Positions 14,741 through 63,892 of a stretch of DNA of 64,000 nucleotides are shown one piece after another. The stretch lies in NCBI GenBank assembly GCA_038327905.1, contig JBBQLN010000010.1, positions 11-64,010 on the forward strand, written 5' to 3'. Numbering within the stretch: the first letter of the stretch is position 1; every line of letters starts with the position of its first letter. A program made the translations under genes and the position numbers. Under the pieces are notes generated by a model. It ran no database searches and was not told the origin of the DNA. It was given only the letters and a program-made list of their open reading frames with translations. The stretch is from Burkholderiales bacterium (GTDB lineage Bacteria; Pseudomonadota; Gammaproteobacteria; Burkholderiales; Methylophilaceae).

Positions 14741-14781
14741 GCTAAGGCTTTCAATAATTTTAATTATTCTTAATTAATTTT

Positions 14782-15090
14782 TTAATGACCACTTAATTTG
14801 GTCAGTACTGTTTTCATTGCATCTGCACCTAAGTGCCTGTTGCTTAATGCTTCTACATCTGCAAACTTAATTCTTGATGTCACTAAATCTAAAAATTCGT
14901 TATCTGGTAAATCTAGCAAGCTATCAAACGCCAATAACTCTGGTTTAGTGAGGGTAGCAAGGTACTTCTCAGAAAAGCGCTGCAATACAATGTCTAGCTC
15001 TAGCAAGCCACGGCGACAACGCCAACTTAAGCGGCGAACTTCTTCCTCAGTCATATTTTGCTTATCTGTCTTGAGTTCACCTAAAAACAT
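14782..15090 (-). CDS. sdhE: Succinate dehydrogenase FAD assembly factor SdhE (DUF339)
   Basis: Contains WRCRRGLLELD, matching the E. coli SdhE core WACRRGMRELD. The start is ambiguous: 15090 has an AGGGA Shine-Dalgarno sequence, while the internal ATG at 15054 gives an E. coli-like length. Confidence 0.8.
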   Translation of the reverse strand: MFLGELKTDKQNMTEEEVRRLSWRCRRGLLELDIVLQRFSEKYLATLTKPELLAFDSLLDLPDNEFLDLVTSRIKFADVEALSNRHLGADAMKTVLTKLSGH

Positions 15091-15109
15091 GTCTCATATC
15101 CCTTTATGC

Positions 15110-15850: not shown

Positions 15851-15917
15851 GGTTTTGTCTCTAATTTCTAATTAATTCTGTTTAATTCCGTTTAATTCAG
15901 CGATGCGTTTATAACGC

Positions 15918-46793: not shown

Positions 46794-48587
46794 CTAGCGC
46801 TTTTTGATGTAGAGGTCAGTGATAGTACCCTCCTTCATCTCGGCTGCAAAACATATAGTTTCAGACAATGTTGGATGTGCATGAATGGTTAATCCTAAAT
46901 CATGAGCATCTGCGCCCATTTCAATGGCCAACACGGCTTCGGCTAGTAACTCACCTGCATTAACACCCACAATGCCCGCACCAATCACGCGATGTGTATT
47001 TTTATCAAAAATCAACTTGGTCAACCCTTCTGTACGTGCCACTGATATTGCACGACCACTAGCCGCCCAAGGGAATGAGGCTTTTTCAATCTCAAGGCCT
47101 TTGGCCTTAGCTTCTATTTCTGTCACGCCAACCCAAGCCACTTCAGGATCTGTGTATGCGACGGATGGAATGACTGAAGCAACAAACTCTACTTTTTCAC
47201 CAGCAATCACTTCTGCAGCAACTTTAGCTTCATGCGTCGCTTTATGTGCCAACATTGGTTGACCGACAATATCACCAATTGCAAAAATGTGCGGCACATT
47301 CGTGCGCATTTGTTTATCTACCGCGATAAAACCGTAATCATCGACAGCCACACCTGCGTTTTCTGCACCAATATTTTTACCATTTGGACGGCGGCCGATA
47401 GACACCAATACGCGGTCATATACTTCAACGCCTTTGGGTGCATCAGCGTTACCGTTTACGCCTTCAAACACCACGTGAATACCATCTTTTTTAGGTTCAA
47501 TACTTGCCACTTTGGTATTGAGCATAATACTTTCAAAACGTTTTTCCATACGTTTTTGCAATGGGCGCACCAAATCACGGTCGCAACCTTGAATTAAGCC
47601 GTCAGTAAATTCAACCACGCTGACTTTAGAGCCTAGCGCATCATAAACAGTACCCATTTCCAAGCCAATAATACCGCCGCCAATTACTAACATGCGCTTA
47701 GGTATATCAGCCAACGCTAATGCGCCTGTGGAGTCCATAATGCGCTCGTCATTAGCAAATTCTGGGGCAACATTAGGGAATTTAGTCGCTTGTGAGCCTG
47801 CTGCAATAATTGCATTATCAAATGATATAGTGGTCACTTTGCCATCAGCAGCGGTCACAGCGATTTGATTAGGGCTGGTAAATTTACCCACACCTTGCAA
47901 TATAGTCACATTACGCTGCTTAGCCATCGCTGCTAAACCACCTGTCAATTTGCCAACGACGTCATTGGCTTTCCAATTTCGCAATCGCTCTAAATCTACT
48001 TTTGGCGCGCCAAAAGTCACACCATGATGCGCGGTTTCTTCAGCTTCAGTAATCACTTTTGCAGTGTGCAACAAAGCTTTTGAAGGAATACATCCGACGT
48101 TTAGACAAACTCCACCAAGTGTTGAGTAACGCTCAATTAGCACCACTTTTTTTCCTAAATCTGCAGCGCGGAAAGCCGCAGTATAGCCGCCAGGGCCAGA
48201 ACCTAAAACAACAACTTCGGTATGCAAATCTGCAGCCCCAACATTAGCAATTGCCGCTACTGCTGCAATAGCTGGCTTTACTTCAACAGCAGCAGTTTCA
48301 GCAGCTACTTCTTGCTTAGTTGGCGCTTCTGCGGCCGTGTCTGCAACCGCGGCCTCAACCATTAAAATCAAGCTATCTTTAGCGACTTTATCACCCACTT
48401 TTACCTTGAGTTCTTTTACTGTACCTGCCACTGCTGATGGAATTTCCATTGAGGCCTTGTCTGACTCCACCGTGATTAATGAGTCTTCCATGGCAATGAC
48501 ATCACCTACTTTTACTAATACTTCGATGACATCAACGCTATCAAAATTGCCAATATCAGGTACCAAAACTTCCAATAAATTACTCAT
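46794..48587 (-). CDS. lpdA: Dihydrolipoyl dehydrogenase (E3) with N-terminal lipoyl domain
   Basis: 597 aa. Lipoyl domain with ..[11 protein letters not shown].., an Ala-rich linker, FAD fold [10 protein letters not shown] and the redox disulfide [13 protein letters not shown]. Confidence 0.92.
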
Positions 48588-48754
48588 GTCGACCCTTTGT
48601 TAAAACCATAGTTATTTATTGTGATTTTATCATCAAAAAGCGCATAAATACCTTCAAAATAGTTGAATCAGTAGTATGATTTATGCATTAAAAATTTAAG
48701 CCTGTTACTGACAGGGTTTTACAAAAAAGTGCTTTTCAGAAAAAAGGGTAGTTC

Positions 48755-51700
48755 ATGTCTTTCGTCCGTTCAGGTTTGCAGTTTGTTCAAATGGTATTAG
48801 CGCGATTATGGTCACTTGCTAGTACGATACTCGGCTTTTTCTTTGGCTCTGTGAACTATCAAGCACCTGCGTGGATGAAGTGGTGCGGGGACAAACTAAA
48901 TAACCTGCGCTTATCGATGATTCAAAAGCCAATTAAAGGCTTAGGCATACTTGCTTTAGTTGCTGCACTTGGCGCTGGGGGCTGGCATGGCTGGGAATGG
49001 TACAAAGCTAGACCGCAACCAGTCACTGTAAAAGTCACTGTAACCGTTCCAACTAGAACACAAATCGAAGATAATTTACCGCCAAACCCACTCAAAATAA
49101 GCTTTGATGCATCAGTAGCGCCCATTGAGCAAGTGGGGAAAGTGATCTCGGCTAATGTTAATATCATGCCGAAAATTGATGGCGTATGGAAATGGGATGC
49201 TGAAAACGAATTGTCATTTCAGCCAAAAGCTGACTGGCCTGTGGGCACTGACTTCAAAGTTAGTCTGAATGCCAAAGCATTGACACCTAAGACACTGCTA
49301 GACAAGTGGGATGTAGAATTCACCTCGCCATTATTTATTGCAGCCATTACTAACAGCGAGTTTTATCAAGATCCAATTAACGCCGCAATGAAAAAAGTGG
49401 TAGTTAACCTTAACTTTAGTCACCCAGTTGATACAGCAAAACTAGAAAAAAGTATTACGCTAAAAATGCGTAGTAACAAAACTAGCTTACTTAATTTTGG
49501 CTCAGACACGATACCCTTTGTTGTAAGTTACGATAAATTAAAACTCAACGCTTACATCCACTCTGCACCGCTAGACATTCCAAAGGATGACAGCATATTA
49601 GAAGTGACGGTAGATGAAGGCTTAAAAGCTGCAACTGGCGGCAAACCATTTGCAACGTCTTTAACACAAAGCGTGAATGTGCCTGGCTTATATAGCTTGT
49701 TGATAAATGAAGTTAGCCCGATTGTAGTTTCTAATGAGCAAAATGAGCCTGAGCAAATCCTATTGCTTAACGCTTCAGCTGCAGTCAATGAAAAAGACAT
49801 GGCGAGCCATATTAAAGCATGGGTATTGCCACGCAATAAATTGGTCAGTACGCCAGAAGAGTTAAAATATCCACACGCATGGTCTAATACAAAAGACATT
49901 ACTGAAGCTGTTCTTGCTGCTGGCAAGCCGCTTTCACTAGAAGCCATTCCAGCTGAACGTGAAAATATAGAAACACACTCGTTTAAATATAAAGCGGATG
50001 TTGGCAGCTATATTTATGTGCAAATTGACAAAGGCTTAAAATCTTTTGGCGGTTATCAATTAGGCGCAACAACACAACGTATTTTACAAGTACCAGTATT
50101 TCCTGCAGAAGTTAAAATTCTCAGCCAAGGTTCATTGCTGGCTTTAAGTGGTGAACGCAAAGTGGCGGTATTAGCGCGCGATTTACCAGGTTTAAAAATG
50201 GAAATTGGGCGTATTCTGCCAGGTCAGTTGCAACATCTTATTACGCAAACCAGTGGCAGCTTTAGCAATCCATCATTCTATTACTCTATTGATGGTGATA
50301 ATTTGAGTGAACGTTTTGAGAAAAACATTCCCTTGCATTTAGAGGCGGGGGAAGCGCATTACGAAGCACTAGATTTGAGTGAATACTTAAGCAAAACTGA
50401 GGGCTTAGATAAAAATCAAAACAAACGCGGTGTTTTCTTGCTTACAGTGCGCGGTTACAAACCTAAGAAAGAAGCCAATGCTGACGGTAGCGAGCAGACT
50501 GATGATGGCAGTGATTACAACCCATCAGAAAACCAAAATCCAGAAGCATTTGTTGATAAACGTCTAATCCTTGTCACCGATTTAGGCTTAATCGCCAAAA
50601 AAGAACTCGATGGCAGCCAAGTGGTTTATGTACAGTCTATTCATACAGGTTTGCCAGTGGCTGGCGCTACGGTTGAGGTGATTGCAAAAAATGGTCAAGC
50701 CATCTTCAGTCAAACAACGGATGCCAATGGACGTGTTAACTTTACCAAGCTAGATGGCTTACAGCGTGAACGCTCACCTATTTTATATATCGTGAAAAAA
50801 GCGGGTGATTTAAGCTTCCTGCCGATTAATCACTATGACAGAAACCTAGACTATTCACGCTTTGACGTAGGTGGCATTGCCAATGCGGCCAGTTCAGATA
50901 GCTTAAATGCTTATCTATTCTCAGACCGTGGCATTTATCGCCCTGGCGATACCATGCATATCGGTATGATAGTCAAAACTGCTACTTGGGCTAAAGCATT
51001 AGACGGCTTACCGTTGCAAGCGGAAGTGCTTGATGCGCGTGGCCTAGTGGTAAAAACTCAAATGGTTAAGCTGGGTGCAGGCGGCTTTAATGAGCTGGAA
51101 TATAAAACTTTAGAAACCTCGCCTACTGGTACTTACAATATTAATCTTTACTCAGTTAAAGATGGCAATGCTTACCAGCAATTAGGCTCTGTCAGTGTAA
51201 AAGTGCAGGAGTTTCAGCCTGATCGCATGAAGGTAAAAGCCTTGTTTGCAAAAGATGCAACGCTTTACCCTGAAACCACTGAGGGCTGGCTAAATCCTAA
51301 AGATTTAAAAGCCAACATCAATGTGCAAAATCTGTTTGGCACACCCGCTGAAAATAGACGCGTGACAGCCAAAATGATGCTCAGCCCAGCATATCCAGCA
51401 TTTAGCCAATATGCAGACTTTGCATTCTACGACCCCTTACGCGCAAAAGAAGGCTATAGCGAGAAATTGAGCGATGCTACCAGTAACGCGCAAGGCGTGG
51501 CTGAGTTTGCCTTAGGTTTAGAAAAGTACACCAAAGCGACTTACAGACTCAACATTGTCGCTCAAGCCTATGAAGCTGGCGGCGGACGCAGTGTTTCCGC
51601 AGAAGTTGCAACGCTGATTTCAGAACAACCTTATTTGATAGGTTTTAAAGCCGATGGCGATTTAAATTACGTCAGCAAAGCTAGCAAACGTAACGTTAAT

Positions 51701-54700
51701 CTGATTGCAGTCAATTCAACCCTGCAAAAAGTAGCCGCCGAAGACTTGAGCTTGAATCTGATTGAGCGCAAATACGTTTCTGTGTTGACCAAACAAGGTA
51801 GCGGCACATTTAAATATGAATCGCGCAAAAAAGAAGTGCTCATCAAAGAGTCGCCTTATAGCATCAAAGCTACAGGCAACAGCCTAGCGCTTGCCTCAGA
51901 AACACCGGGTGATTTTGCTTACGTGCTTAAAAACAAAGATGGCTTAGAGCTAAACCGCGTGGAATACAGCGTGGCTGGCTTAGGTAATGTAAGCCGCTCA
52001 CTAGAGCGTAATGCGGAGCTAAAACTAGCACTAGATAAAAAAGACTATGCCGCCGGCCAAGAGATTAGTATCAGCATTCGCGCACCTTATGTGGGCGCTG
52101 GCTTGATTACCATTGAGCGCGATAAAGTGTATGCACAACAATGGTTTAAAGCTGACTCTCAAGCATCTGTGCAAAAAATCAAATTGCCTGCAGACTTTGA
52201 AGGTAACGGCTATGTGAGCGTGCAGTTTGTGCGCGATCCAAGTTCAGATGAAATTTTCACCAGCCCGCTATCATATGGTGTAGTGCCGTTTGTAACGAGC
52301 TTATCGCAGCGCACCAATACGTTGAAACTCAGTAGTCAGCCGCTCATCAAACCTGGCCAAGTGCTGAAGATGAAATTGAATGCAGCTAAACCTGGCCGTG
52401 CTGTGGTATTTGCGGTGGATGAAGGTATCTTACAAGTCGCAAGATATAAAAACCCCGATGCGCTTGGTTTCTTCTTCCAAAAACGACAATTAGAAGTTTC
52501 AACTTCACAAATTTTGGATTTAATCTTACCTGAGTTCAAAAAGATTATGGCTGCAACCGCACCTGGCGGCGATGCTGATGGTGCTTTGGGTAAACACTTA
52601 AATCCATTCAAACGTAAAACTGACAAGCCAGCCGTTTATTGGTCTGGCATTGTCGATGTGACTGATAGCAAAGAATTTAGTTATACAGTGCCAGAAACAT
52701 TCAACGGTAAAATGCGCATTATCGCTGTGATGGTGAGCGATGCCAGCATTGGCATTACCACTAGTGACGCCTTAGTTCGTGGTGACTTTGTACTGTCACC
52801 CAACGCGCCACTCACAGTCACTCCAGGTGATACTTTTGACGTCAGCGTTGGCGTCTCTAACAATGTCAAAGGTTCTGGTAAAGAGGCCGCGGTAACGCTT
52901 AACCTTGCACCTTCACCCGCCTTTGAACTCGTTGGTGCAGCTAAACAAGTGTTAAAAATCGGCGAGTTGCGAGAAGGCACGGGTCTTTACAAGCTTAAAG
53001 TTAAAGAAGGTGCAGCCGCTAAATTAGGCTCCGCTAGAATTGAATTCACCGCAAATATCGGTGATAAGTTTGCAAAACTGGGTACTGAGATTAGTGTGCG
53101 TCCATCCACACCTCACATGACCATTATGCAAACAGGTAGCTTTAAAGGCGACACGCAAGTCAGCGTGAAGCGCACCATGTTTGCAGAGTATCGCAAACAG
53201 CAAGCAAGTGTTTCACCATTGCCTTTAGTGGCCGCTGGCGGTTTGCTTGATTACTTAGCTAACTATGAGCATAGCTGTACTGAGCAATTGGTCAGTCAAG
53301 TCATGCCTATCATCGTACTTAAAAAACGTCCAGAACTCTTGGCGAGTGTCAGCACTAAAAAAAGTAATTTCGAAAACGCCTTAAGCGTATTACGTACACG
53401 CCAAAATGCTGAAGGTGGCTTTGGCTTGTGGGATGCCAGTGTAGGGGCAGACGAGTTCGCCAGCGTTTATGCGGTTCACATGATGCTAGAAGCCCGTGAC
53501 CATGCGAATGTTGGTGAAGAGATCCCTGCTGACATGCTAAAAAAAGGCTTGGAGTATTTGCAAACCTTAGCGGCCAGCCCAGCAACAAACCTAGATGCTG
53601 CTCGTGTGAGGGCTTACGCAACGTACTTGCTGACGCGCGAAGGCACGGTCACCACACCGTTGTTAGCAAGCTTGCGCAGTACGCTAGATGCTAAAACTTT
53701 AACTGACAATAGTTTCAAAGAGTGGCGCTCAGACTTAACTGCGGCTTATCTTGCAGCGAGCTATCAGCTATTGCAGCAGCATGCCGTAGCCAGCGACTTA
53801 ATCACTAAGCCTGTAAAATTGTTGAACGCAAGGAGCCAACAAGCTATCTATGGGCATTATTACGATGATGTGGTGCGAAATGCACAAACGCTTTACTTAG
53901 TGTCACGCCACTTTCCAGAAAAAGTGAAAGAGGTATCAAGCGACGCGTTAAATAACATCATGAAGCCTATTTCGGAAGGTCGCTTCAATACCTTGTCATC
54001 GTCTTATGCGTTACTTGGATTTGATGCTTATGCTAACGTTGCTGGGATAAAAGTCGCAGGTCAAATGGGTATTAGCGCGATAGATAAGCAAGGCAAAGTC
54101 ACAACGCTGAAATTAGCAGAAAACAGTATTGCACCTTCGGCGAACTTTTCACCAGAGACCGCACGTTTGAAGCTACAAGGACCAAGTGGCTTGCCATTAT
54201 TCTACGCAGTCACAGAGTCTGGTTTTGACATAAAACCACCAGCTACTGCATTAAAACAAGGCATGGAAATCATCCGTGAATATACGGACGATAAAGGCGC
54301 TGCGTTAAAATCAATCACCATGGGTGACGAAATCACCGTGCACATCAAAATCCGCGCGATTGACGGTAATGTAGATGACGTGGCGATTGTAGATTTGCTA
54401 CCAGGTGGCTTCGAGCCTGTGTTGCAAGCTGCCGTAAGCGAAACAGATAGCAGCATTTCTCAAGGAGGTGAAGAAGGCTACAATGAAGGTGAAGGCCAAG
54501 CGCCAGAAATTTCCAGCTGGACTAGTCCGCTTGGCATTGGGGGTGGTTGGCAACCAAGCTATGCAGATATTCGTGAAGACCGTGTAGTTTTTTACGGCGC
54601 AGTCACCAACACGATTACAGAGTTCACTTACAAAATCAAGGCCACAAACAGTGGCCAATTTGTAGTGCCGCCAGCTTATGCAGAGTCAATGTATAACCGC

Positions 54701-54757
54701 TTGCTGCAAGCGCGCTCATTACCCGCTAACCTTACCGTGGGTCGTGCTGGAAAATAA
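48755..54757 (+). CDS. Bacterial alpha-2-macroglobulin family protein, thioester-containing, N-terminally TM-anchored
   Basis: 2000 aa. Thioester motif CTEQ at residues 1508-1511 (nt 53276-53287). N-terminal hydrophobic segments (..LGILALVAALGAGGW..) and no lipobox. Immediately followed by pbpC, as in class-1 bacterial A2M loci. Confidence 0.85.
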   Translation: MSFVRSGLQFVQMVLARLWSLASTILGFFFGSVNYQAPAWMKWCGDKLNNLRLSMIQKPIKGLGILALVAALGAGGWHGWEWYKARPQPVTVKVTVTVPTRTQIEDNLPPNPLKISFDASVAPIEQVGKVISANVNIMPKIDGVWKWDAENELSFQPKADWPVGTDFKVSLNAKALTPKTLLDKWDVEFTSPLFIAAITNSEFYQDPINAAMKKVVVNLNFSHPVDTAKLEKSITLKMRSNKTSLLNFGSDTIPFVVSYDKLKLNAYIHSAPLDIPKDDSILEVTVDEGLKAATGGKPFATSLTQSVNVPGLYSLLINEVSPIVVSNEQNEPEQILLLNASAAVNEKDMASHIKAWVLPRNKLVSTPEELKYPHAWSNTKDITEAVLAAGKPLSLEAIPAERENIETHSFKYKADVGSYIYVQIDKGLKSFGGYQLGATTQRILQVPVFPAEVKILSQGSLLALSGERKVAVLARDLPGLKMEIGRILPGQLQHLITQTSGSFSNPSFYYSIDGDNLSERFEKNIPLHLEAGEAHYEALDLSEYLSKTEGLDKNQNKRGVFLLTVRGYKPKKEANADGSEQTDDGSDYNPSENQNPEAFVDKRLILVTDLGLIAKKELDGSQVVYVQSIHTGLPVAGATVEVIAKNGQAIFSQTTDANGRVNFTKLDGLQRERSPILYIVKKAGDLSFLPINHYDRNLDYSRFDVGGIANAASSDSLNAYLFSDRGIYRPGDTMHIGMIVKTATWAKALDGLPLQAEVLDARGLVVKTQMVKLGAGGFNELEYKTLETSPTGTYNINLYSVKDGNAYQQLGSVSVKVQEFQPDRMKVKALFAKDATLYPETTEGWLNPKDLKANINVQNLFGTPAENRRVTAKMMLSPAYPAFSQYADFAFYDPLRAKEGYSEKLSDATSNAQGVAEFALGLEKYTKATYRLNIVAQAYEAGGGRSVSAEVATLISEQPYLIGFKADGDLNYVSKASKRNVNLIAVNSTLQKVAAEDLSLNLIERKYVSVLTKQGSGTFKYESRKKEVLIKESPYSIKATGNSLALASETPGDFAYVLKNKDGLELNRVEYSVAGLGNVSRSLERNAELKLALDKKDYAAGQEISISIRAPYVGAGLITIERDKVYAQQWFKADSQASVQKIKLPADFEGNGYVSVQFVRDPSSDEIFTSPLSYGVVPFVTSLSQRTNTLKLSSQPLIKPGQVLKMKLNAAKPGRAVVFAVDEGILQVARYKNPDALGFFFQKRQLEVSTSQILDLILPEFKKIMAATAPGGDADGALGKHLNPFKRKTDKPAVYWSGIVDVTDSKEFSYTVPETFNGKMRIIAVMVSDASIGITTSDALVRGDFVLSPNAPLTVTPGDTFDVSVGVSNNVKGSGKEAAVTLNLAPSPAFELVGAAKQVLKIGELREGTGLYKLKVKEGAAAKLGSARIEFTANIGDKFAKLGTEISVRPSTPHMTIMQTGSFKGDTQVSVKRTMFAEYRKQQASVSPLPLVAAGGLLDYLANYEHSCTEQLVSQVMPIIVLKKRPELLASVSTKKSNFENALSVLRTRQNAEGGFGLWDASVGADEFASVYAVHMMLEARDHANVGEEIPADMLKKGLEYLQTLAASPATNLDAARVRAYATYLLTREGTVTTPLLASLRSTLDAKTLTDNSFKEWRSDLTAAYLAASYQLLQQHAVASDLITKPVKLLNARSQQAIYGHYYDDVVRNAQTLYLVSRHFPEKVKEVSSDALNNIMKPISEGRFNTLSSSYALLGFDAYANVAGIKVAGQMGISAIDKQGKVTTLKLAENSIAPSANFSPETARLKLQGPSGLPLFYAVTESGFDIKPPATALKQGMEIIREYTDDKGAALKSITMGDEITVHIKIRAIDGNVDDVAIVDLLPGGFEPVLQAAVSETDSSISQGGEEGYNEGEGQAPEISSWTSPLGIGGGWQPSYADIREDRVVFYGAVTNTITEFTYKIKATNSGQFVVPPAYAESMYNRLLQARSLPANLTVGRAGK

Positions 54758-54770
54758 AAGGCTATGCCTT

Positions 54771-54799
54771 CCGTCATTCCCAGTTATTGGGAATGACGG
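54771..54799 (+). other. Perfect 12-bp stem / 5-nt loop hairpin in the A2M-pbpC spacer
   Basis: CCGTCATTCCCA(54771-82) GTTAT TGGGAATGACGG(54788-99). It starts 14 nt after the A2M stop. A short T-run (GGTTTT) lies 7 nt downstream. Confidence 0.6.
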
Positions 54800-54826
54800 A
54801 GCTAGGTTTTAAGTTATATAACATTC

Positions 54827-57148
54827 ATGCTCAGGTTAAAACTACCAAAGAAGACATTCGTTGCTGCTATTCTAATTGTCACCGTCTTAGCCGTATTACG
54901 ACTCTATGAGAAACCTGCACTTTTAAGCTTAATCCCCCACTCCACCGCTATTTATGCCGTTGATGGCAGCTTGCTACGAATCACTTTGGCATCCGACGCA
55001 CAGTATCAACTTTGGGTGCCATTAAAAGATATCAACCCTAATGCAGCTGAGGCGGTTAAGCTATATGAAGATCGTTATTTTGACTGGCACTTGGGTGTTA
55101 ACCCGCTGGCGTTATTACGGGGCATGGTGCGCACTTATACTGGGGGTTCTCGCCAAGGCGCCTCCACCATCACAATGCAGCTGGCACGCGGTTTATACGG
55201 CATAGATTCACGCACGGTAAGCGGAAAACTAAAGCAAATATTGGCGGCAGTATGGCTAGAGTCCCAATACTCAAAGCATGACATTCTCGAAGCTTATTTG
55301 AATATTGCGCCTTACGGCGGCAACATTAAAGGCATTGCCACTGCTAGTCTGTTTTACTTTAATAAACCTGCCAGCAGGCTTAACTTGCCTGAAGCCATGA
55401 CGCTGGCGGTAATTCCGCAAAACCCTAATAGACGCCTTAGTATCAGCAATAAAAATGCTCAGCTTAATGAAGCTAGAAACCGCTTGTGGCAAGACTGGTT
55501 AGCACTACATCCGCAAGATGCAAAATACACTGCTGATATGCGCTTACCTGCTCAATCTTTACAAGAGGCAAAACGTTTAAGTAGCCAAAACTTACCCTTT
55601 TTGGCACCTCACTTTACCGATGCATTATTGGCCGAACACCGCAATCAAGCAACTATACATACGGGCTTAAATATTCATGCACAAGCTACACTTGAACGCA
55701 TGATTGCCAGCTATATTGAAAACAATAAAAACCTAGGTATTAATAATGCCAGTGCTGTTTTGTATGATGCAAAAACCATGCAAGTCAAAGCCTTAGTCGG
55801 CTCTGCTGATTACTTCAATGCTGCGATTGATGGGCAAGTCAACGGCACAGCGGCTAAGCGTTCACCTGGCTCCACCTTAAAGCCATTTATATACGGCTTG
55901 GCAATGGATCAAAGTTTGATTCACCCTGCGAGTATATTAAAAGATGCGCCGACTAGCTTCGGCCCTTACAGTCCAGAGAATTTTGACGGTCGTTTTATTG
56001 GTCCAATCACAGCTGCAGACGCTCTGATACGCTCACGCAATGTGCCTGCGGTGAGTTTAGCCTCTAGGCTCACTCAGCCTAGCTTATACGATTTTTTAAA
56101 AAATGCGGGGGTGGCTAATTTAAAAAGTGAATCTCATTATGGCCTAGCGCTGGCATTAGGTGGTGGCGAGCTCACAATGGAGGAACTCGTCAGCTTATAC
56201 GCTATGCTGGCTAACCATGGTCGTTTTGCCCCCTATAGCCTCACAAAACAAAATTCAGCGACATTTCCACTACTAAGTGAAGAGTCGGCCTATATCACTT
56301 TAGATATGTTGCGGCAAAATCCTAGACCAGACACTGGTGAACCTGACCACTACAATACCGCGTGGAAAACTGGCACCTCTTGGGGTTTTCACGATGCATG
56401 GACGGTAGGCGTAAGCGGTAACAATGTATTAGCCGTGTGGGTGGGGAATTTTGATGGCAAACCTAACCCAGCTTTTATCGGCATTAAAACTGCTGCGCCT
56501 TTATTTTTTCAGATTCTAGATAGCCTGCGCCATCAACGTTTACTAAATCGAAAAACGGAAGTCGAAGCCATGCCGCCGCGCACCTTAACCAAAGTAAAGG
56601 TGTGTACTGCAAGTGGCGACTTGCCCAACAAGTACTGTAAGAATCTCAGTGAAACATGGTTTATTCCAGGTAAGTCTCCCATTAAAATCAGCACCTTGCA
56701 CAGACCCGTCTATTTCGATAACGCAACAAATCAAGTGGTATGCAGTGCAGGAGCCAATACACGTGAAGAAATCATCGAGTTTTGGAACTCAGATATGTTA
56801 CGGCTATTCCGTGAGGCAGGTATGCCACGCCGTATACCGCCAACGCTGCCAGTAGGGTGTAGTAACAAACTCAGCCAAGTGATTGATGATAAGCCGCAAA
56901 TCACCTCGCCGCTTAGAGGTGTGTCTTACACCATTCGCTTAAGTAAGCCAGAAACCATCGCACTAAGAGCCAGCCGTGGCGGTCAAGGTAGTATTTACTG
57001 GTTTGCGGATAATAGCTTTATTGCCAAAAGTGAGGCTGGCGCAGGCATTGCATGGACACCCCAAAAAGCGGCACATTACTTGTTACGAGCGGTTGATGAT
57101 GCAGGACAATCCGATAGCCGTGAGGTGGTAGTAGAGTTTGTGCCTTAA
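54827..57148 (+). CDS. pbpC: Penicillin-binding protein 1C (glycosyltransferase + transpeptidase)
   Basis: 773 aa. GT51 motif EDRYFDWHLGVNP, transpeptidase SxxK (STLK) and a C-terminal PBP1C-type domain. Paired with A2M. Confidence 0.88.
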   Translation: MLRLKLPKKTFVAAILIVTVLAVLRLYEKPALLSLIPHSTAIYAVDGSLLRITLASDAQYQLWVPLKDINPNAAEAVKLYEDRYFDWHLGVNPLALLRGMVRTYTGGSRQGASTITMQLARGLYGIDSRTVSGKLKQILAAVWLESQYSKHDILEAYLNIAPYGGNIKGIATASLFYFNKPASRLNLPEAMTLAVIPQNPNRRLSISNKNAQLNEARNRLWQDWLALHPQDAKYTADMRLPAQSLQEAKRLSSQNLPFLAPHFTDALLAEHRNQATIHTGLNIHAQATLERMIASYIENNKNLGINNASAVLYDAKTMQVKALVGSADYFNAAIDGQVNGTAAKRSPGSTLKPFIYGLAMDQSLIHPASILKDAPTSFGPYSPENFDGRFIGPITAADALIRSRNVPAVSLASRLTQPSLYDFLKNAGVANLKSESHYGLALALGGGELTMEELVSLYAMLANHGRFAPYSLTKQNSATFPLLSEESAYITLDMLRQNPRPDTGEPDHYNTAWKTGTSWGFHDAWTVGVSGNNVLAVWVGNFDGKPNPAFIGIKTAAPLFFQILDSLRHQRLLNRKTEVEAMPPRTLTKVKVCTASGDLPNKYCKNLSETWFIPGKSPIKISTLHRPVYFDNATNQVVCSAGANTREEIIEFWNSDMLRLFREAGMPRRIPPTLPVGCSNKLSQVIDDKPQITSPLRGVSYTIRLSKPETIALRASRGGQGSIYWFADNSFIAKSEAGAGIAWTPQKAAHYLLRAVDDAGQSDSREVVVEFVP

Positions 57149-57191
57149 GCAAACCTTAGCTAACTAGCGCTGAAGTTCATGAGTTTTGGGC

Positions 57192-57212
57192 TTGTAACTA
57201 GCTCTGTTACAA
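57192..57212. promoter_or_regulatory. Palindromic operator candidate upstream of the MscS gene
   Basis: TTGTAAC(57192-98)-N7-GTTACAA(57206-12). It overlaps a possible -10 TACAAT (57208-13), 35 nt before the ATG at 57248. Confidence 0.35.
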
Positions 57213-57247
57213 TCAATGTCCCGCATTACCCATACAAATAGCTAACC

Positions 57248-58330
57248 ATGGACTTTAAAGCAATATCAACCCAATTAAAATTTTCATCAATAACTGAACC
57301 TTGGTTTCCTCAAGTCTTTTTTGTGATTTTGGCAGTCTTGTTAGCCTATTTTCTTTCTCAATTAATACTTCGACTTTTTCAAAAAATGGCACTTCGCAGC
57401 GAAAGTCTTTGGGATGATGCGATTATCGATGCTGCAAGGCTGCCAATACCAATCATCATACTTATTTTAGGCATTGCTATTACCGTAAAAATAATTAGCA
57501 AGCATTTTGACTTCGAAATTGTGGAATATATAGCACCATTGCGTACAGTAGGCATTGTGATGTGTGTGTCATGGTTTTTTATTCGACTTGTTCGCAGCTT
57601 CTCTCACAATTTAATTGAAATTAACAAAAAACAAGGCGCTGAAATAGACTTCACCACAATAGATGCGCTTTCAAAACTAGCCAAACTCGTTATAACGATT
57701 GTCTCTATGCTAGTGATATTTGAGTCAATAGGATTTAGTATTTCAGGATTATTAGCGGCTGGTGGTATTGGTGGCTTGGCTGTAGCATTTGCAGCGAAAG
57801 ATCTATTAGCAAATTTCTTCGGTGGATTGACCATCTATTTAGATAGACCTTTCAGCATTGGTGACTGGATTCGCTCACCCGATAGCGAAATCGAAGGTAC
57901 CGTAGAGTATATTAGCTGGAGGCATACTCGTATTCGCGCCTTTAACAAAAATCCAATTTATGTGCCAAACGCATTATTTACCACCATCGTAGTAGAAAAT
58001 CCGTCTAGGATGACTAACCGTCGCATTAAAGAAACTGTAGGTATCCGCTATGACGATATCAAAGTAATGGATGCTATCGTGGCTGACGTGAAGGATATGC
58101 TTCGAAACCATGTAGAAATCGACACCTCACAAACACTCATCGTCAATTTTAATGCATTTGGGCCCTCTTCACTTGATTTCATCATCTACACCTTTACAAA
58201 AACCACAGACTGGACGCACTACCATGAAGTCAAACAGGACATATTACTAAAAACAGCGGACATCATCAGCAGCCATCATGCAGAAATAGCTTTCCCTACG
58301 CGAACTTTACATATTGGTAGCGCAGGATAG
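57248..58330 (+). CDS. MscS-family small-conductance mechanosensitive channel
   Basis: 360 aa. N-terminal TM helices, the pore-lining helix region ..GGIGGLAVAFAAKDLLANFFGG.. followed by ..RPFSIGDWI.., typical of MscS. Confidence 0.85.
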   Translation: MDFKAISTQLKFSSITEPWFPQVFFVILAVLLAYFLSQLILRLFQKMALRSESLWDDAIIDAARLPIPIIILILGIAITVKIISKHFDFEIVEYIAPLRTVGIVMCVSWFFIRLVRSFSHNLIEINKKQGAEIDFTTIDALSKLAKLVITIVSMLVIFESIGFSISGLLAAGGIGGLAVAFAAKDLLANFFGGLTIYLDRPFSIGDWIRSPDSEIEGTVEYISWRHTRIRAFNKNPIYVPNALFTTIVVENPSRMTNRRIKETVGIRYDDIKVMDAIVADVKDMLRNHVEIDTSQTLIVNFNAFGPSSLDFIIYTFTKTTDWTHYHEVKQDILLKTADIISSHHAEIAFPTRTLHIGSAG

Positions 58331-58486
58331 TGAGGCGAAAACAACATTAAATTTAGAGTTCTTCTATCAAACGAAAGCTTAGATAAACCATTGAGATAAA
58401 TAGTTTACAAGCTATTCTAAAGATATTGCTGAAGTATCACTACTCTCGCTGGGGCTCAATTTGAGAACTTTTAAATAATTAGGCTA

Positions 58487-59464
58487 TTACAGCAGGCTTG
58501 TTAAATGTTGGCCTAACGTCTTTGTATTCACGAAGGTCATACCGTACATTGCAGTCACGCCTTTGCATTGCTCATTATCTAAGTCTGCAACACAAAGAAT
58601 GAAGTATCTTTGGTCTATCGCCAAGCGTTTACGCAAAGCCACATATTTGTCTAAGTCTTGTCTAAAATCGCCAGTTTTACATTCAATATAAAGCGGTTGA
58701 CTATTGTTAACGAGGAAGAAAACATCAAGCTCCCTGTTTTCGTTTGATGGGAAAGCTAGCGTCATATTTCGAGCGCAAGAGAAATTGATGTTACGCTCTT
58801 TGCATATTCTTAAACCAATCATTAATGCAAACCACTCAAGCCAATCACCAGCAAAAAAACGTCTGACACTAGGCGCATTTTGCAAAACCACGCGAATATT
58901 TTTCTCTTTTTTGTTACTAATGCAACGAGCAATAAGCGAGTGGTCGTAAAGTTGCTGCACAAAGCCCTCAATGGCTTTAGCATCTTCTTTAGTTTTTTTA
59001 TCAAGATGCACTAGATTGCTGGTGTACTCTTTGAGCTGAGCATAGCGAATTCGCTCACATACTTCACCAAGGAGTTCGTAATCAGAACCAATCGCTACAG
59101 CAGCTTCGTCAAAAAATCCTGTAGTATCAACTGCATTAATACTGGCTGTAGCGATGATATTTTTTGATTTAAACCACTGAATAATGGGTGCATGTTGTGC
59201 GTCAGAACTCAAAGAATCCGAATTATGAATGTCGAAACTATCGTCACTCTTTTTCGACTGCGTTTGACTCTCTTTTGAAGAATCTGGGGTAAGCGCATTA
59301 AACTCTTTGCGCAATGCAAAGTACATTTCAGAAAGCTTATTAACGAAATACGTAGTGTCATAAACTGCGGTACTAGCACCACATTGACAAACTAACGATG
59401 TACCTACTAGCTCTCGCCCATGTTCAGTAACATTTCCGCACTTATTACATCGAGAAATTGCCAT
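58487..59464 (-). CDS. Zinc-ribbon protein with C-terminal PD-(D/E)xK nuclease domain (Card1/DUF1887-like), no sensor domain recognised
   Basis: 325 aa. Zinc ribbon C6-x2-C9-x16-C26-x-C28, a Ser/Asp/Gln-rich linker, then GDWLEWF..ELD-x13-ECKTG (the D..ExK nuclease core). Confidence 0.6.
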   Translation of the reverse strand: MAISRCNKCGNVTEHGRELVGTSLVCQCGASTAVYDTTYFVNKLSEMYFALRKEFNALTPDSSKESQTQSKKSDDSFDIHNSDSLSSDAQHAPIIQWFKSKNIIATASINAVDTTGFFDEAAVAIGSDYELLGEVCERIRYAQLKEYTSNLVHLDKKTKEDAKAIEGFVQQLYDHSLIARCISNKKEKNIRVVLQNAPSVRRFFAGDWLEWFALMIGLRICKERNINFSCARNMTLAFPSNENRELDVFFLVNNSQPLYIECKTGDFRQDLDKYVALRKRLAIDQRYFILCVADLDNEQCKGVTAMYGMTFVNTKTLGQHLTSLL

Positions 59465-59547
59465 CTAGGATTACACCTATTAAATTGAATGATTTTAGCA
59501 GTAATCTTTACTACTGTAACTTCTAGGTGTTATTCATTAAGTTGAGT

Positions 59548-59580
59548 TTCACCAACCCTACAAAAATTAGGATTGGTGAA
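59548..59580 (-). other. 13-bp stem-loop just downstream of aceF (possible terminator/attenuator)
   Basis: Arms 59548-60 and 59568-80 with a 7-nt loop. On the minus-strand RNA it forms 12 Watson-Crick pairs plus one G-U. On the plus-strand RNA the same position is a C-A mismatch, which favours the aceF sense. No U-tract follows. Confidence 0.4.
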
Positions 59581-59590
59581 GTAAATTAGA

Positions 59591-60931
59591 CTACAGCAAT
59601 AACCTACGCACATCACTCAACATCATACGCATGTGGCTAGTGAAACGTGCGCCATCAGCACCATCAACCACGCGGTGGTCATATGACAATGACATAGGCA
59701 ACATCAAGCGCGGCTCGAATGCTTTAGTTTTAGGATCATATACAGGCTGCATGCTTGAACGTGAAACGCCTAGAATAGCAACTTCTGGACAGTTGATAAT
59801 GGGTGTAAAAATCGTACCACCAATGCCACCTAAGCTAGAAATGGTAAAGCAACCGCCTTGCATCTCTTCAATTTTCAACTTACGTTCACGCGCTTTGGTT
59901 GAAAGTTCAGCTAGATCACGGGCAATATCCAGTACATCTTTTTGCTGCACATCTTTAACGACTGGCACGACTAAACCATCAGGCGTGTCGCAAGCAAAGC
60001 CGATGTTGAAATAATTTTTCAAGATCAAGCTATCACCATCAGGTGACAGTGATGCGTTAAAGTTTGGATAAGCTTTAAGCGCATTCACTGAGGCTTTAAT
60101 TAAAAATGCCAACATAGTCAGTTTAACGCCACGTTTCTCGGCATCAGCTTGCATAGACTTTCTAAAGTCTTCCAAGTCAGTAATATCAGCCTCGTCAAAC
60201 TGTGTGACATGTGGAGCCGTTACCCAGTTGCGATGTAAATTCGCACCTGACAATTTTTTAATGCGCGAGAGTGGCTTATTCTCAATGGCGCCAAATTGAC
60301 TAAAATCAATCACTGGCATAGGTAAAGCCGCGAAGCCACTTACGCCAGCACCCATGTTTTCAGTACGCGGTTTAGCCAACTCACTTTTTACGTAAGACTG
60401 CACATCAGCTTGTACAATACGATTCTTTGGTGCGCTGCCTTTTACAAAAGCTAAATTGACTCCCAACTCACGTGCAAACTTACGTACTGATGGGCTAGCA
60501 TGTGATAACTTGCCTGCGTCAACCACCGCGCTAGCTCCCACTGGCACTGGCTGTTGCGCTGGGGCAATTGTTTTTGGTGGTTCTGGCGCTGGGCGGCTGG
60601 GCTCAGGAATCGCTACTGCGGCAACCACTGGCTTTTCTGCAGCAGGTTGAGGTGCGACAGCTTTTATCTGTTCAAGCGATACAGCAGTTGAATCGCTTAC
60701 GTCCATTGTTAAAATTAAACTACCTTGAGCAGCTTTATCGCCCACTTTCATTTTTAGTTCTTTAACCACACCTGAAAAGGGTGATGGAATATCCATAGAA
60801 GCTTTGTCAGATTCTACCGTAATGAGCGAATCTTCTTCAGCAACTGTGTCACCTACTTTAACTAAAATTTCAATAACATCAACACTATCAAAATTGCCGA
60901 TGTCGGGGACAAGTATGTCTTGAATTGCCAT
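59591..60931 (-). CDS. aceF: Dihydrolipoamide acetyltransferase (PDH E2) with a single lipoyl domain
   Basis: 446 aa. One lipoyl domain (..[11 protein letters not shown]..), a Pro/Ala linker, the E3-binding domain (..ASPSVRKFARELGV..) and the catalytic DHRVVDGA. Confidence 0.9.
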   Translation of the reverse strand: MAIQDILVPDIGNFDSVDVIEILVKVGDTVAEEDSLITVESDKASMDIPSPFSGVVKELKMKVGDKAAQGSLILTMDVSDSTAVSLEQIKAVAPQPAAEKPVVAAVAIPEPSRPAPEPPKTIAPAQQPVPVGASAVVDAGKLSHASPSVRKFARELGVNLAFVKGSAPKNRIVQADVQSYVKSELAKPRTENMGAGVSGFAALPMPVIDFSQFGAIENKPLSRIKKLSGANLHRNWVTAPHVTQFDEADITDLEDFRKSMQADAEKRGVKLTMLAFLIKASVNALKAYPNFNASLSPDGDSLILKNYFNIGFACDTPDGLVVPVVKDVQQKDVLDIARDLAELSTKARERKLKIEEMQGGCFTISSLGGIGGTIFTPIINCPEVAILGVSRSSMQPVYDPKTKAFEPRLMLPMSLSYDHRVVDGADGARFTSHMRMMLSDVRRLLL

Positions 60932-60943
60932 GTCTGCGTGTCC

Positions 60944-63628
60944 TTAAACTGTCGTTGGGTTAGGCTTGTTAGCATCTAACTTGTATTTTTTAATCGCCTC
61001 AGCCGCTTTGCTTGCTGGCAATTTGCCATCATCTGCCAGCGCTTTAAGTGCAGCCAACACCACGTAATATCTATCCACTTCAAAGAAGCTTCGTAATGCT
61101 TCACGGCTATCTGAACGACCATAACCATCAGTACCTAAAGCAACAAAGCGCTGCGGTACAAAGTTCTGAATTTGGTCCGCAAATGAACGCATATAATCTG
61201 TTGATGCAATTACTGGGCCTTCAGCTTTTTGTAAACACTGAGCCACATAGCTTAGTCTTGGTTTAGCTTCTGGATTCAGCAAGTTTTGACGTTCTGCATC
61301 AATGCCTTCACGGCGTAACTCGGTAAAGCTAGTCACACTCCAAACGTCAGCGGATACACCCCAGTCTTTTTCTAGCAACTCACCCGCAGCAATCACTTCG
61401 CGCAAGATCACACCAGAACCCATCAATTGCACTTTAGGGCCTTTCGCTTTAGATTTGCTAAAGCTGTACATGCCTTTCAAAATACCTTCGGCAGAATCTT
61501 TAGGCATTTCAGGATGCGTGTAGTTTTCATTCATCAAGGTAATGTAGTAATACACATCTTCTTGATTTTGCACCATACGACGCAAACCTTCTTGAATAAT
61601 TACAGCAAGCTCATAAGCAAATGTTGGGTCGTAAGACACACAGTTAGGAATCGTTGCAGACATCAAGTGACTATGACCATCTTCGTGTTGTAAGCCTTCG
61701 CCATTCAATGTGGTACGACCTGCGGTAGCCCCTAACAAGAACCCACGCGCACGGCTATCGCCAGCTGCCCAAGCAAAGTCACCAATGCGTTGGAAACCAA
61801 ACATTGAGTAGTAGATATAAAACGGAATCATTTGCGTGCCTGTGACGCTGTATGACGTTGCAGCAGCTAGCCAGCTGGCGAATGAACCTGCTTCGTTAAT
61901 CCCTTCTTCTAAAATCTGACCAGTTTTTGACTCTTTGTAATACATCACTTGGTCAGAATCTTGTGGATCGTACAACTGGCCTACTGAAGAATAAATACCG
62001 AGTTGTCGGAACATGCCTTCCATACCGAAAGTACGCGCTTCATCTGGCACGATAGGCACCACAAACTTGCCAATTTCTTTATCGCGTACCAAGGTTGAAA
62101 GAATACGCACAAACGCCATTGTTGTTGATATTTCACGCTCGCCTGTTGAGACTAGCATATTCTCAAATGCCGAAAGTTCAGGCACTACAAGTTCATTCCC
62201 TTTAGTGCGACGTTGTGGCACAAAGCCACCCATCGCATTACGACGCTCAGCCAAGTATTTCATTTCGGGGCTATCGTCTGCTGGTTTGTAGAACGACAAG
62301 CTTTCAACTTGTTCGTTTGTTAATGGCAAGTCGAAGCGGTCACGGAATTTTTTAAGTGACTCAATATCCATACTTTTTTGTTGGTGTGTGGTATTTTGAC
62401 CTTCACCCGCATCACCCATGCCGTAACCTTTTACAGTTTTAGCTAAAATGACAGTCGGCTGACCTTTATGATTTACCGCTGAATGATACGCTGCATAAAC
62501 TTTGTGAGGGTCATGACCACCGCGATTTAAGCGCCAAATATCAGCATCAGACATGGCCGCAACCATTTCTTTTAGCTCAGGATATTTACCAAAGAAGTGT
62601 TCGCGTGTATAGGCGCCACCCTTTTGTTTAAAGTTTTGATACTCACCATCTACGCACTCTTCCATGCGTTTTTTGAGCAAACCATCTTTATCCATGGCAA
62701 GTAATGGATCCCAATACGAACCCCACACCACTTTAAGTGCATTCCAGCCCGCACCACGGAAGTTAGACTCAAGCTCTTGAATGATTTTGCCATTACCGCG
62801 CACTGGGCCATCCAAACGTTGCAAGTTACAGTTAATGACGAAAATAAGGTTATCTAAACCTTCACGCGCTGCGAGTGAAATCGCACCCTGTGATTCAGGC
62901 TCATCCATTTCACCATCACCACAGAACACCCAGACCTTGCGGTCGCTGGTATCCGCAATACCGCGGTTATGCATGTATTTTAAGAAGCGCGCTTGATAAA
63001 TGCCTGCCAAAGGGCCTAAACCCATAGACACAGTGGGAAATTGCCAGAAATCTGGCATTAACCAAGGATGTGGGTAGCTAGATAAACCATTACCGCCCGT
63101 TTCTTGGCGGAAGTTATCCATTTGCTCTTCAGTAAATCGACCTTCTAAGAAAGCTCGTGCGTACACACCTGGTGAAGAGTGACCTTGAAAGTAGATGCAA
63201 TCACCTCCAAAGTTTTCATTTGGTGCACGGAAGAAATAGTTGAAGCCAGTATCATACAAAGTAGCCGCAGACTGAAAACTAGCAATATGTCCACCCACAC
63301 CTGGTGATTTTTCATTTGCACGAAGTACCGTCATAATCGCATTCCAGCGAACTAGCGCTCTTACACGGCGCTCCATTTCAGGATCACCAGGTAATTTAGA
63401 CTGCAAATGCGTCGGTATAGTGTTAACGTAAGCTGTAGTGGCTTTATACGGCAAATTACTACCTGAGCGACGTGCTTTATCAATCATAGCCTCGAGCAAA
63501 AAGTGTGCTCGCTCAGTGCCTTCGTTTTCAATAACAGCTGTCAGCGCATCAAGCCATTCTTGTGTTTCTATTGGGTCTGTTTCACTTAAGCCGTTGTCTT
63601 GAATAGTAGCGTTTTGATTCGTTGCCAT
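60944..63628 (-). CDS. aceE: Pyruvate dehydrogenase E1 component (homodimeric type)
   Basis: From the ATG at 63628 (GGAG about 10 nt upstream) the product is 894 aa, similar to E. coli AceE. The N-terminus is MATNQ..DPIETQEWLDAL. The 24-aa extension in the ORF track is probably not translated. Confidence 0.92.
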   Translation of the reverse strand: MATNQNATIQDNGLSETDPIETQEWLDALTAVIENEGTERAHFLLEAMIDKARRSGSNLPYKATTAYVNTIPTHLQSKLPGDPEMERRVRALVRWNAIMTVLRANEKSPGVGGHIASFQSAATLYDTGFNYFFRAPNENFGGDCIYFQGHSSPGVYARAFLEGRFTEEQMDNFRQETGGNGLSSYPHPWLMPDFWQFPTVSMGLGPLAGIYQARFLKYMHNRGIADTSDRKVWVFCGDGEMDEPESQGAISLAAREGLDNLIFVINCNLQRLDGPVRGNGKIIQELESNFRGAGWNALKVVWGSYWDPLLAMDKDGLLKKRMEECVDGEYQNFKQKGGAYTREHFFGKYPELKEMVAAMSDADIWRLNRGGHDPHKVYAAYHSAVNHKGQPTVILAKTVKGYGMGDAGEGQNTTHQQKSMDIESLKKFRDRFDLPLTNEQVESLSFYKPADDSPEMKYLAERRNAMGGFVPQRRTKGNELVVPELSAFENMLVSTGEREISTTMAFVRILSTLVRDKEIGKFVVPIVPDEARTFGMEGMFRQLGIYSSVGQLYDPQDSDQVMYYKESKTGQILEEGINEAGSFASWLAAATSYSVTGTQMIPFYIYYSMFGFQRIGDFAWAAGDSRARGFLLGATAGRTTLNGEGLQHEDGHSHLMSATIPNCVSYDPTFAYELAVIIQEGLRRMVQNQEDVYYYITLMNENYTHPEMPKDSAEGILKGMYSFSKSKAKGPKVQLMGSGVILREVIAAGELLEKDWGVSADVWSVTSFTELRREGIDAERQNLLNPEAKPRLSYVAQCLQKAEGPVIASTDYMRSFADQIQNFVPQRFVALGTDGYGRSDSREALRSFFEVDRYYVVLAALKALADDGKLPASKAAEAIKKYKLDANKPNPTTV

Positions 63629-63892
63629 GCGTGAGATTTCTCCGTGTTGTGGTTCCTGCGCGTATAATTTATCAGTTAAGTATACAAAATGGCACAGCAA
63701 CTAAACGTGATTAGATTGTTCAATACGATTAGAATATTCAAATCGTCGAACTTGCCTTTAAAAATTAATTTTGAGGCTATAGTGTGTCTTTTTTAGGCTT
63801 TTTGGTCAAGTTAAACCGTGCGGAATAGCCCGTAAATTATTGATATCTGCTACGATAGTCTTAGATATCATATAAGAGTTAGAGGGAAATAA

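Follow-up and report, generated by a model that had tools for sequence, protein, structure and literature searches.

A CARF-less protein with a predicted zinc ribbon and a Can2/Card1-type nuclease domain, encoded at the aceF/lpdA junction of a Methylophilaceae bacterium

A Can2/Card1-type nuclease domain in a lone gene

We analysed a 64,000-nucleotide stretch of DNA from a Burkholderiales bacterium of the family Methylophilaceae (positions 11 to 64,010 of contig JBBQLN010000010.1, assembly GCA_038327905.1), referred to in its entirety as the window, and concentrated on a single gene on its reverse strand, at 58487..59464, whose open reading frame (ORF) was confirmed to begin with ATG and to code for 325 amino acids followed by a stop codon. 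The C-terminal part of its product is a Card1/Can2-type PD-(D/E)xK nuclease domain. We interpret the protein as a stand-alone nuclease of the Can2/Card1/VC1899 lineage, in which a zinc-ribbon head replaces the CARF domain and which is carried as an accessory, self-promoted cassette, and we assign to this interpretation a probability of about 0.62. Can2/Card1 nucleases have so far been understood only as CRISPR helpers gated by cyclic oligoadenylate (cOA); in the family described here, the sensor is lost, and the nuclease domain, which is complete and has kept its active site, is coupled to other heads, namely zinc ribbon, TerD, TPR and S1. The parts of the gene and of its product are as follows, with the basis for each given in parentheses.

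58487..59464, minus strand: whole ORF, zinc-ribbon/Can2-type nuclease (ORF list; 598 homologues; ratio of nonsynonymous to synonymous substitution rates, dN/dS, of 0.06-0.09)
59357..59464, minus strand: predicted Cys4 zinc ribbon of four strands, residues 1-36, with C6, C9, C26 and C28 (conservation and structural model)
59291..59356, minus strand: long predicted helix after the zinc ribbon, residues 37-58 (model, with a predicted local distance difference test score, pLDDT, of about 91-95)
59204..59290, minus strand: Ser/Asp/Gln-rich linker of variable length, residues 59-87, ending in D-I-H-N-S-D (pLDDT and alignment)
59114..59203, minus strand: family-specific N-terminal element of the module, residues 88-117, with Q90, H91, W97, D113 and G116 (conservation)
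58874..59113, minus strand: helix/beta-hairpin, winged-helix-like subdomain, residues 118-197 (PADLOC offsets, Foldseek lengths and the published description of Can2)
58490..58873, minus strand: PD-(D/E)xK nuclease core, residues 198-325 (alignment to Can2, Card1 and VC1899; conservation)
58835-58837, 58730-58732, 58724-58726, 58682-58684 and 58676-58678, minus strand: candidate catalytic codons for E210, E245, D247, E261 and K263, respectively

The core motifs can be read directly from the protein, with GDWLEWF at residues 206-212, ELD at residues 245-247 and, 13 residues further on, ECKTG at residues 261-265. An earlier interpretation of this DNA, made from the letters alone and called here the sequence-only reading, had listed these motifs together with those of the zinc ribbon and of a Ser/Asp/Gln-rich linker, all of which are present as it described them, and had recognised the core as being of the Card1 (DUF1887) type, an assignment borne out by Pfam, PADLOC, profile and Foldseek matches alike. 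PF09002 (Card1_endonuc) is the sole Pfam family matched by the protein (residues 200-274, E=4.8e-5, 23.4 bits). The PADLOC CARF_PDDEXK models are matched with E=7e-13, residues 154-280 being aligned with positions 197-311 of 361 in one alignment, and residues 153-305 with positions 193-340 of 364 in another. A profile of 53 homologues, when compared with the PDB, retrieved Can2 (7BDV) with E=7e-9, and Card1, the T. brockii Can2 and VC1899 with E of about 1e-5; in these alignments, GxWLEW, ELD and IECK of the family are paired with GGWFE, ELD and IECK of the solved enzymes.

The predicted structure points to the same lineage. An AlphaFold2 model built on the alignment of 53 sequences has a mean pLDDT of 92, with disorder confined to residues 60-74 (a model built on the single sequence was unusable, with a pLDDT of 35). 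Its comparison with the PDB by Foldseek yielded 22 matches with E<=1e-4, covering 230-300 columns, all of them to VC1899, Cdn1, Can2 (7BDV, 8Q3Y-8Q44) or Card1 (6XL1, 6WXW); the top matches, with a probability of 1.00, were 1XMX (E=6e-11) and 9U49 (8e-11), followed by 7BDV and 6XL1, down to 4e-7. Of these, 1XMX is VC1899, 9U49 is Cdn1, 7BDV is Can2, and 6XL1/6WXW are Card1. Between 240 and 258 columns are aligned to VC1899, Cdn1 and Can2, and the matches that come next are far weaker: a single unrelated protein with E=2.5e-4, after which come PD-(D/E)xK enzymes of a generic kind, EndoMS among them (about 0.04). A Foldseek search against viral structures returned just weak, generic restriction-endonuclease matches.

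Conservation was followed in three alignments, containing 23 close homologues, 53 diverse full-length homologues, and 55 longer relatives with other architectures (A1, A2 and A3, respectively). Residues E210, E245, D247, E261 and K263, as well as C9, C26 and C28, are invariant in the first; C6, C9, C26, C28, E210, D247, E261 and K263 are at least 90% conserved in the second; and the columns matching E210, D247 and E261 are invariant in the third. Two outcomes that would have spoken against the Card1-type assignment, namely poor conservation of the D..ExK residues or a match to a housekeeping family, were looked for: the residues are conserved, and the searches lead to Can2, Card1 and VC1899. 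Judging from its sequence, the nuclease is very probably catalytically competent.

Some observations weigh against our interpretation as a whole. The PF09002 score of the single sequence, 23.4 bits, lies under the gathering score of 26.4 bits. The second knuckle of the zinc ribbon is CxC in the clade to which the window belongs, as a result of a one-residue deletion, and CxxC in most homologues. Finally, VC1899, an orphan without CRISPR linkage in which the nuclease residues are conserved, displays no DNase activity in vitro, and only a weak residual RNase activity that cyclic tetra-adenylate (cA4) does not regulate (PMC7969007); since this weakly active protein is the closest structural match, an intact motif is no guarantee of robust activity. 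The same properties of VC1899, along with the winged-helix-like subdomain seen in the model, would agree with a non-catalytic DNA-binding or regulatory protein that employs the subdomain and the nuclease fold for binding only. However, E210, D247, E261 and K263 are conserved both in the 53 diverse homologues and in the other architectures, which would be unexpected were catalysis dispensable, and we therefore regard a purely non-catalytic role as very improbable.

The N-terminal head and the accessory subdomain

Residues 1-36 constitute a conserved, predicted Cys4 zinc ribbon with two Cys knuckles placed on beta-hairpins. Its motif, C6-x2-C9-x16-C26-x-C28, lies on predicted strands with pLDDT of 94-96, and profile comparison gives weak matches to the zinc ribbons of RNA polymerases (Rpo12, RPA12 and RPB9). 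A Pfam scan of the window protein found no match to any zinc-ribbon model, and relatives do match Zn_ribbon_4, Zn_ribbon_5 and Zn_ribbon_8. When residues 1-60 alone were used as a query, only the same family was recovered, and sharing of the head with other effectors was not found. The helix that follows (residues 37-58) may serve in dimerisation or as a docking arm. Farther on, pLDDT drops below 50 at residues 60-74 of the linker, which differs in length and sequence among homologues, with I79 and H80 being invariant in the close family.

The sequence-only reading had left a helical region of about 110 amino acids before the core unassigned, and had spoken of a new sensor architecture for the protein. 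Structural comparison of an AlphaFold model, which that reading had advised, returned the Can2/VC1899 lineage. The elements of the model in this region are helices at residues 118-127, 129-144 and 159-174, a beta-hairpin with strands at 178-184 and 189-194, and a helix at 198-223; weak matches to winged-helix proteins of the MarR/SarA type were obtained both by Foldseek and by profile search. The nuclease domain of Can2 (residues 166-366) was described as a PD-(D/E)xK core plus four helices flanking two antiparallel strands, an arrangement in common with VC1899 (PMC7969007). Residues 118-197 thus appear to correspond to the accessory subdomain of the Can2 and VC1899 nuclease domains, as judged from the Foldseek alignment lengths, the PADLOC offset of about 40 residues, and the published description of Can2. 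These 80 or so residues, which appear to match a Can2-type subdomain, are therefore not a novel sensor, and the region can be called unassigned only in its first part, residues 88-117, which is family-specific. Both the consensus of the longer relatives and the phmmer hits against TerD-, TPR- and further architectures start at about residue 95, which we take as the beginning of the conserved module. The zinc ribbon, the helix at 37-58, the linker and residues 88-117 are without a known counterpart.

The protein lacks a CARF domain: its N-terminus consists of the zinc ribbon, the helix and the disordered linker, and the PADLOC CARF_PDDEXK/CARF4 matches start at profile positions of about 193-197, past the CARF part. 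In the absence of such a domain, switching by cA4 through CARF is impossible.

Under our interpretation, the whole Can2-type nuclease domain would have been kept, and the place of CARF would have been taken by a flexible linker preceded by a Cys4 zinc ribbon and a long helix. The enzyme would cut DNA and/or RNA with Mg2+ or Mn2+ coordinated by E210, D247 and E261, together with K263, and, by analogy with Can2, would probably act as a dimer. Regulation or targeting would fall to its N-terminal module, which could bind nucleic acid or a partner or else keep the dimer together; the protein would most likely be a cOA-independent nuclease that this module controls or aims. As to its genomic habit, it would represent a self-promoted one-gene cassette that settled at the aceF/lpdA junction in a single clade of Methylotenera, and elsewhere on the chromosome in other Betaproteobacteria.

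An accessory insertion at the aceF/lpdA junction

The nuclease gene is located between aceF (59591-60931, minus strand), which ends 126 bp upstream of it, and a convergent gene for an MscS-type channel (57248-58330, plus strand). We compared this arrangement with that in 57 metagenomic contigs of close relatives, selected to have an aceF 74-94% identical to that of the window and at least 1.2 kb of sequence after it. In 43 of these contigs, lpdA comes directly after aceF, the two lying between 12 bp and about 1.5 kb apart, and no more than 330 bp apart with two exceptions; the nuclease gene follows aceF in two, and other inserts are found at this place in 12, including pbpC and alpha-2-macroglobulin genes without the nuclease gene. 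Because lpdA follows aceF in 43 of the 57 and different inserts occupy the site in others, the junction is an accessory-gene hot spot in Methylotenera. In one relative (L096), aceF is followed by the nuclease gene, 611 bp of non-coding DNA and lpdA, representing a clean one-gene insert; in the window, the order is nuclease gene, mscS, pbpC, a gene for an alpha-2-macroglobulin of 2000 amino acids, and only then lpdA (46794-48587). The nuclease gene is an accessory single-gene cassette at this site, and the proposal that it is an acquired insert behind aceF holds in view of the 43 uninterrupted junctions and of L096, which carries it alone. In neither the window nor L096 did we find mobility genes near the insert, and flanking repeats occurred only at chance level.

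Some 11 kb of cargo interrupts the pyruvate dehydrogenase cluster of the window, aceE-aceF ... lpdA (46794-63700), and other relatives carry unrelated inserts of 1-3 kb at the same junction. The mscS gene stands between the nuclease gene and pbpC in the window and is absent from that place in L001, L008, L009 and L011, where pbpC is directly next; it looks like a further lineage-specific insertion. At the other end of the cluster, the longest aceE ORF has an upstream extension (63629-63700, minus strand) that begins at a TTG at 63700; products of relatives begin with MATNQ..., and the true start of aceE is probably the internal ATG near 63628.

Composition contributes little to the case for acquisition. 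The G+C content is 39.8% in the nuclease gene, 44.7% in aceF, 39.1% in mscS, and 43.3% on average in the window, which places the gene at the 8th percentile among window stretches of equal size. The low value given for the gene by the sequence-only reading is thus upheld, while its figure of 48% for aceF was too high. As evidence of acquisition, however, the difference is weak, since the G+C content at third codon positions (GC3) is 35.3% in the nuclease gene versus 36.5% in aceF, and the neighbouring mscS is equally poor in G+C. Recent horizontal import as judged from composition was accordingly rejected, GC3 being the same as in the neighbours; any acquisition would have to be old, with the gene ameliorated since. 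The organism is a Methylotenera, the closest match of the nuclease being a Methylotenera sp. protein with 92% identity.

The intergenic region upstream of the gene contains two features.

59548..59580, minus strand: 13-bp hairpin directly after the aceF stop codon (RNA fold of -19.2 kcal/mol, z = -4.55)
59492..59520, minus strand: promoter-like site, GTTACA, 17 nt, TG-n-TAAAAT, with an extended -10 element (consensus scan)

The hairpin, which is retained with sequence changes in L001, L007, L008, L096 and L099, may act as a putative terminator, lacking a U-tract, that separates aceF from the nuclease gene. A TGnTAnAAT motif occurs 30-45 nt before the start codon in orthologues located after aceF, uvrA or mfd, which is suggestive of a promoter belonging to the nuclease gene itself, the match being to a generic consensus. 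The extended -10 element takes the form TGATGATAAAAT, TGCTAAAAT or TGATAGAAT in the window and in L001, L007-L009, L011, L014, L015, L017, L019 and L021, whichever gene lies upstream. A very similar element precedes lpdA in the empty-site relatives L108, L111 and L118, and may be the common promoter form of this lineage. A LexA/SOS box was also considered and rejected: the inverted repeat CAGTA-N8-TACTG, upstream of the gene and overlapping with its promoter-like site, is of the wrong polarity for such a box, and orthologues have not kept it. An Rfam scan of the flanks yielded no matches.

Family members, distribution and selection

In a protein collection clustered at 90%, 598 homologues were found with E<=1e-3, the best 120 of them with 58-92% identity, and a library clustered at 50% yielded 691 clusters at the same threshold. 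PF09002 was detected in 41 of the 55 longer relatives, the N-terminal domains of which include TerD in six (E down to 4e-48), TPR in two, S1 and ANTAR in one each, and several zinc ribbons. Proteins that combine TerD with the Can2-type module are exemplified by P0135 (from L087/L088), P0147, P0156 and P0196. A literature search found no description of the zinc-ribbon, TerD or TPR forms.

Members occur in 499 species-representative genomes, and nearly all of the top 80 belong to Betaproteobacteria (Methylophilaceae, Gallionellaceae, Rhodocyclaceae/Azonexaceae, Sterolibacteriaceae, Zoogloeaceae and Thiobacillaceae). About 13 Methylophilaceae species are among the best loci in a pattern-based scan, and named isolates are absent from the list; since any orthologue in Methylophilaceae should score over 60%, such a number suggests a patchy distribution within Methylophilaceae. 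No copies were detected by tblastn in 72,556 plasmids or in 50,697 phage records. Sequence-read runs that hold the gene are essentially all DNA metagenomes, and the one run labelled as RNA has only 6% of the words sampled in common with it.

A maximum-likelihood tree of 66 members contains a Methylophilaceae clade (100/99), a sister group of Gallionellaceae type, and a large Rhodocyclales clade, with a few members misplaced, and largely follows taxonomy at the family level. The nuclease gene is under strong purifying selection, with a dN/dS of 0.06-0.09 versus the nearest orthologues and unsaturated dS. Its product is 71-92% identical to those of relatives, slightly under the values for aceE, aceF and pbpC on the same contigs (81-98%).

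Genomic neighbourhood and biological role

As to the biological role, we estimate the chances of a conflict or defence nuclease at about two in five, of a repair or stress nuclease at a little over one in three, and of something else at one in four. A single-gene nuclease directed against phages or plasmids, in which the ribbon and linker would sense a cue of infection and release an abortive-infection-like degradation of invader or host nucleic acid, is a possibility to be taken seriously, at somewhat less than even odds. The characterised structural relatives are all ancillary effectors of type III CRISPR; the effector module has been recombined with TerD, TPR, S1, ANTAR and zinc ribbons, a kind of shuffling typical of conflict systems; and the one-gene cassette shows presence/absence polymorphism at a variable junction, as well as occurrence in only about 13 Methylophilaceae species among the best loci, with no named isolates listed.

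The surroundings of the gene, however, provide little support for defence. When 50 window ORFs were scanned with PADLOC at E<=1e-5, the nuclease ORF alone gave a match, and the window contains, as the sequence-only reading had stated, neither a CARF or SAVED domain nor a gene for a Cas protein or a cyclase; the Pfam families listed for its remaining ORFs, 25 out of 74, belong to central metabolism, cell envelope and housekeeping. No type III CRISPR was found in the 64-kb window or in the 12-kb flanks of related loci, and none of the models for stand-alone systems in PADLOC v2 was matched, the matches being confined to models named for CARF nucleases or Csx1 and to the generic PD_DExK model, by way of the nuclease part. 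No defence-island context was observed in the window, nor in most of about 70 related loci: among 82 representatives of gene families located within 5 kb, only two or three match methyltransferase or mads (methylation-associated defence) models. The methyltransferase and mads neighbours are the sole defence-like context of the family and occur in a minority of loci. Also at variance with defence are the lack of copies in the plasmid and phage records searched, the strong purifying selection, and a tree that largely tracks taxonomy.

An Eco57I-type N6-adenine methyltransferase gene was seen in the 12-kb loci of eight Rhodocyclales relatives (e.g. L079, 10131-11309), lying no more than 5 kb from the nuclease gene in three loci, and a few neighbours match mads models. 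A toxin-antitoxin arrangement was considered and rejected, as the flanks of 126 bp and 156 bp are too small for a conserved partner ORF and there is no constant neighbour.

In several clades the neighbours would fit a chromosomal maintenance nuclease, participating in DNA repair or in the handling of transcription/replication conflicts together with translocases such as Mfd, UvrA, DinG, RecQ or HrpA. The gene immediately upstream on the same strand is uvrA in a second Methylotenera clade (L012, L014, L016 and L017) and mfd in Gallionellaceae (L004 and L021), with mfd one gene removed in L020 and L023; hrpA is divergent from the nuclease gene in many Rhodocyclales loci, and a DinG-type helicase is encoded two genes upstream in L056, L058 and L077, which are metagenome-assembled genomes labelled Sterolibacteriaceae and Rhodocyclaceae. 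Purifying selection, chromosomal location and the presumed own promoter would also be in line with such a role. On the other hand, by a rough count these neighbours make up four or five of about 25 independent contexts versus about 2.5 expected by chance, which is not significant, and the other contexts comprise aceF, purB-DUF2322 (with the nuclease gene after it), glnS (beside it), crcB and nitroreductase. Moreover, no LexA-box-like element was noticed upstream when the region was read by eye, the CAGTA-N8-TACTG there being of opposite polarity; the distribution within Methylophilaceae is patchy; and the variety of N-terminal domains is unlike that of a fixed repair enzyme. We consider a maintenance role less likely than not.

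Overall, neighbours differ clade by clade, and no partner gene is constant across the loci of the clades examined; the contigs of more distant homologues and of the TerD/TPR forms are too short or uninformative with regard to context. In the Sideroxydans contig L004, a ribonucleotide reductase large-subunit gene (13931-16975) contains an intein with a LAGLIDADG endonuclease domain.

A broader proposal, which we regard as rather unlikely, is that the module from about residue 95 to 325 is a widely reused effector cassette outside CRISPR, the zinc-ribbon form being a new one-protein immune or conflict system with ribbon and linker as its trigger, and TerD, TPR, S1 and ANTAR as alternative triggers. 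For the zinc-ribbon nuclease of the Can2/Card1/VC1899 lineage, learning what activates or directs it would reveal how an effector module of CRISPR has been put to use outside CRISPR, and could account for the long-standing orphan VC1899. Cultured carriers, including strains of Azonexus, Dechloromonas, Azovibrio and Zoogloea, make the family experimentally tractable.

Comparison with known systems

The Can2/Card1/Cdn1 enzymes (DUF1887, PF09002; 7BDV, 6WXW/6XL1, 8Q3Y, 9U49) share with the window protein the extended nuclease domain, composed of subdomain and core, and the motif order GxWxE ... ELD ... (I/V)ECK, with Foldseek E-values of 8e-11 to 4e-7. In contrast to these enzymes, the window protein has a zinc ribbon, a helix and a disordered linker instead of the CARF/cA4 sensor, is only 10-18% identical to them, and is the product of a lone chromosomal gene, with no type III CRISPR seen in the window. 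Can2 itself works as a dimer which, when activated by cA4, nicks DNA and cleaves RNA in a metal-dependent manner (PMC7969007). Since CARF was tested for and is absent, and no association with CRISPR was seen, the window protein does not count, functionally, as a Can2/Card1 effector; it is a member of the nuclease-domain family.

The best structural match, VC1899 of Vibrio cholerae (1XMX), is the founding member of DUF1887 and an orphan with conserved nuclease residues and no association with CRISPR; it keeps a degenerate CARF and has no zinc ribbon, while the window protein has a zinc ribbon and no CARF. The relatives fused to TerD, TPR, S1 or ANTAR (e.g. P0135, P0147 and P0218), known as metagenomic proteins, share the module from about residue 95 to 325, with 38-43% identity in the TerD forms, and differ in having another N-terminal domain in place of the zinc ribbon. 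EndoMS/NucS and other PD-(D/E)xK repair nucleases share the general fold (Foldseek E of about 0.04), and their accessory domains do not correspond.

TieA (HP0986) of H. pylori, an endonuclease annotated as DUF1887 and characterised outside CRISPR, is reported to bind DNA and to cleave it non-specifically (PMC5100599). It is encoded by a strain-variable gene and has been studied as a host-interacting factor, and the passage cited reports no zinc-ribbon N-terminus for it. In VC1899 and TieA, Can2-type nucleases that stand outside CRISPR signalling have precedents.

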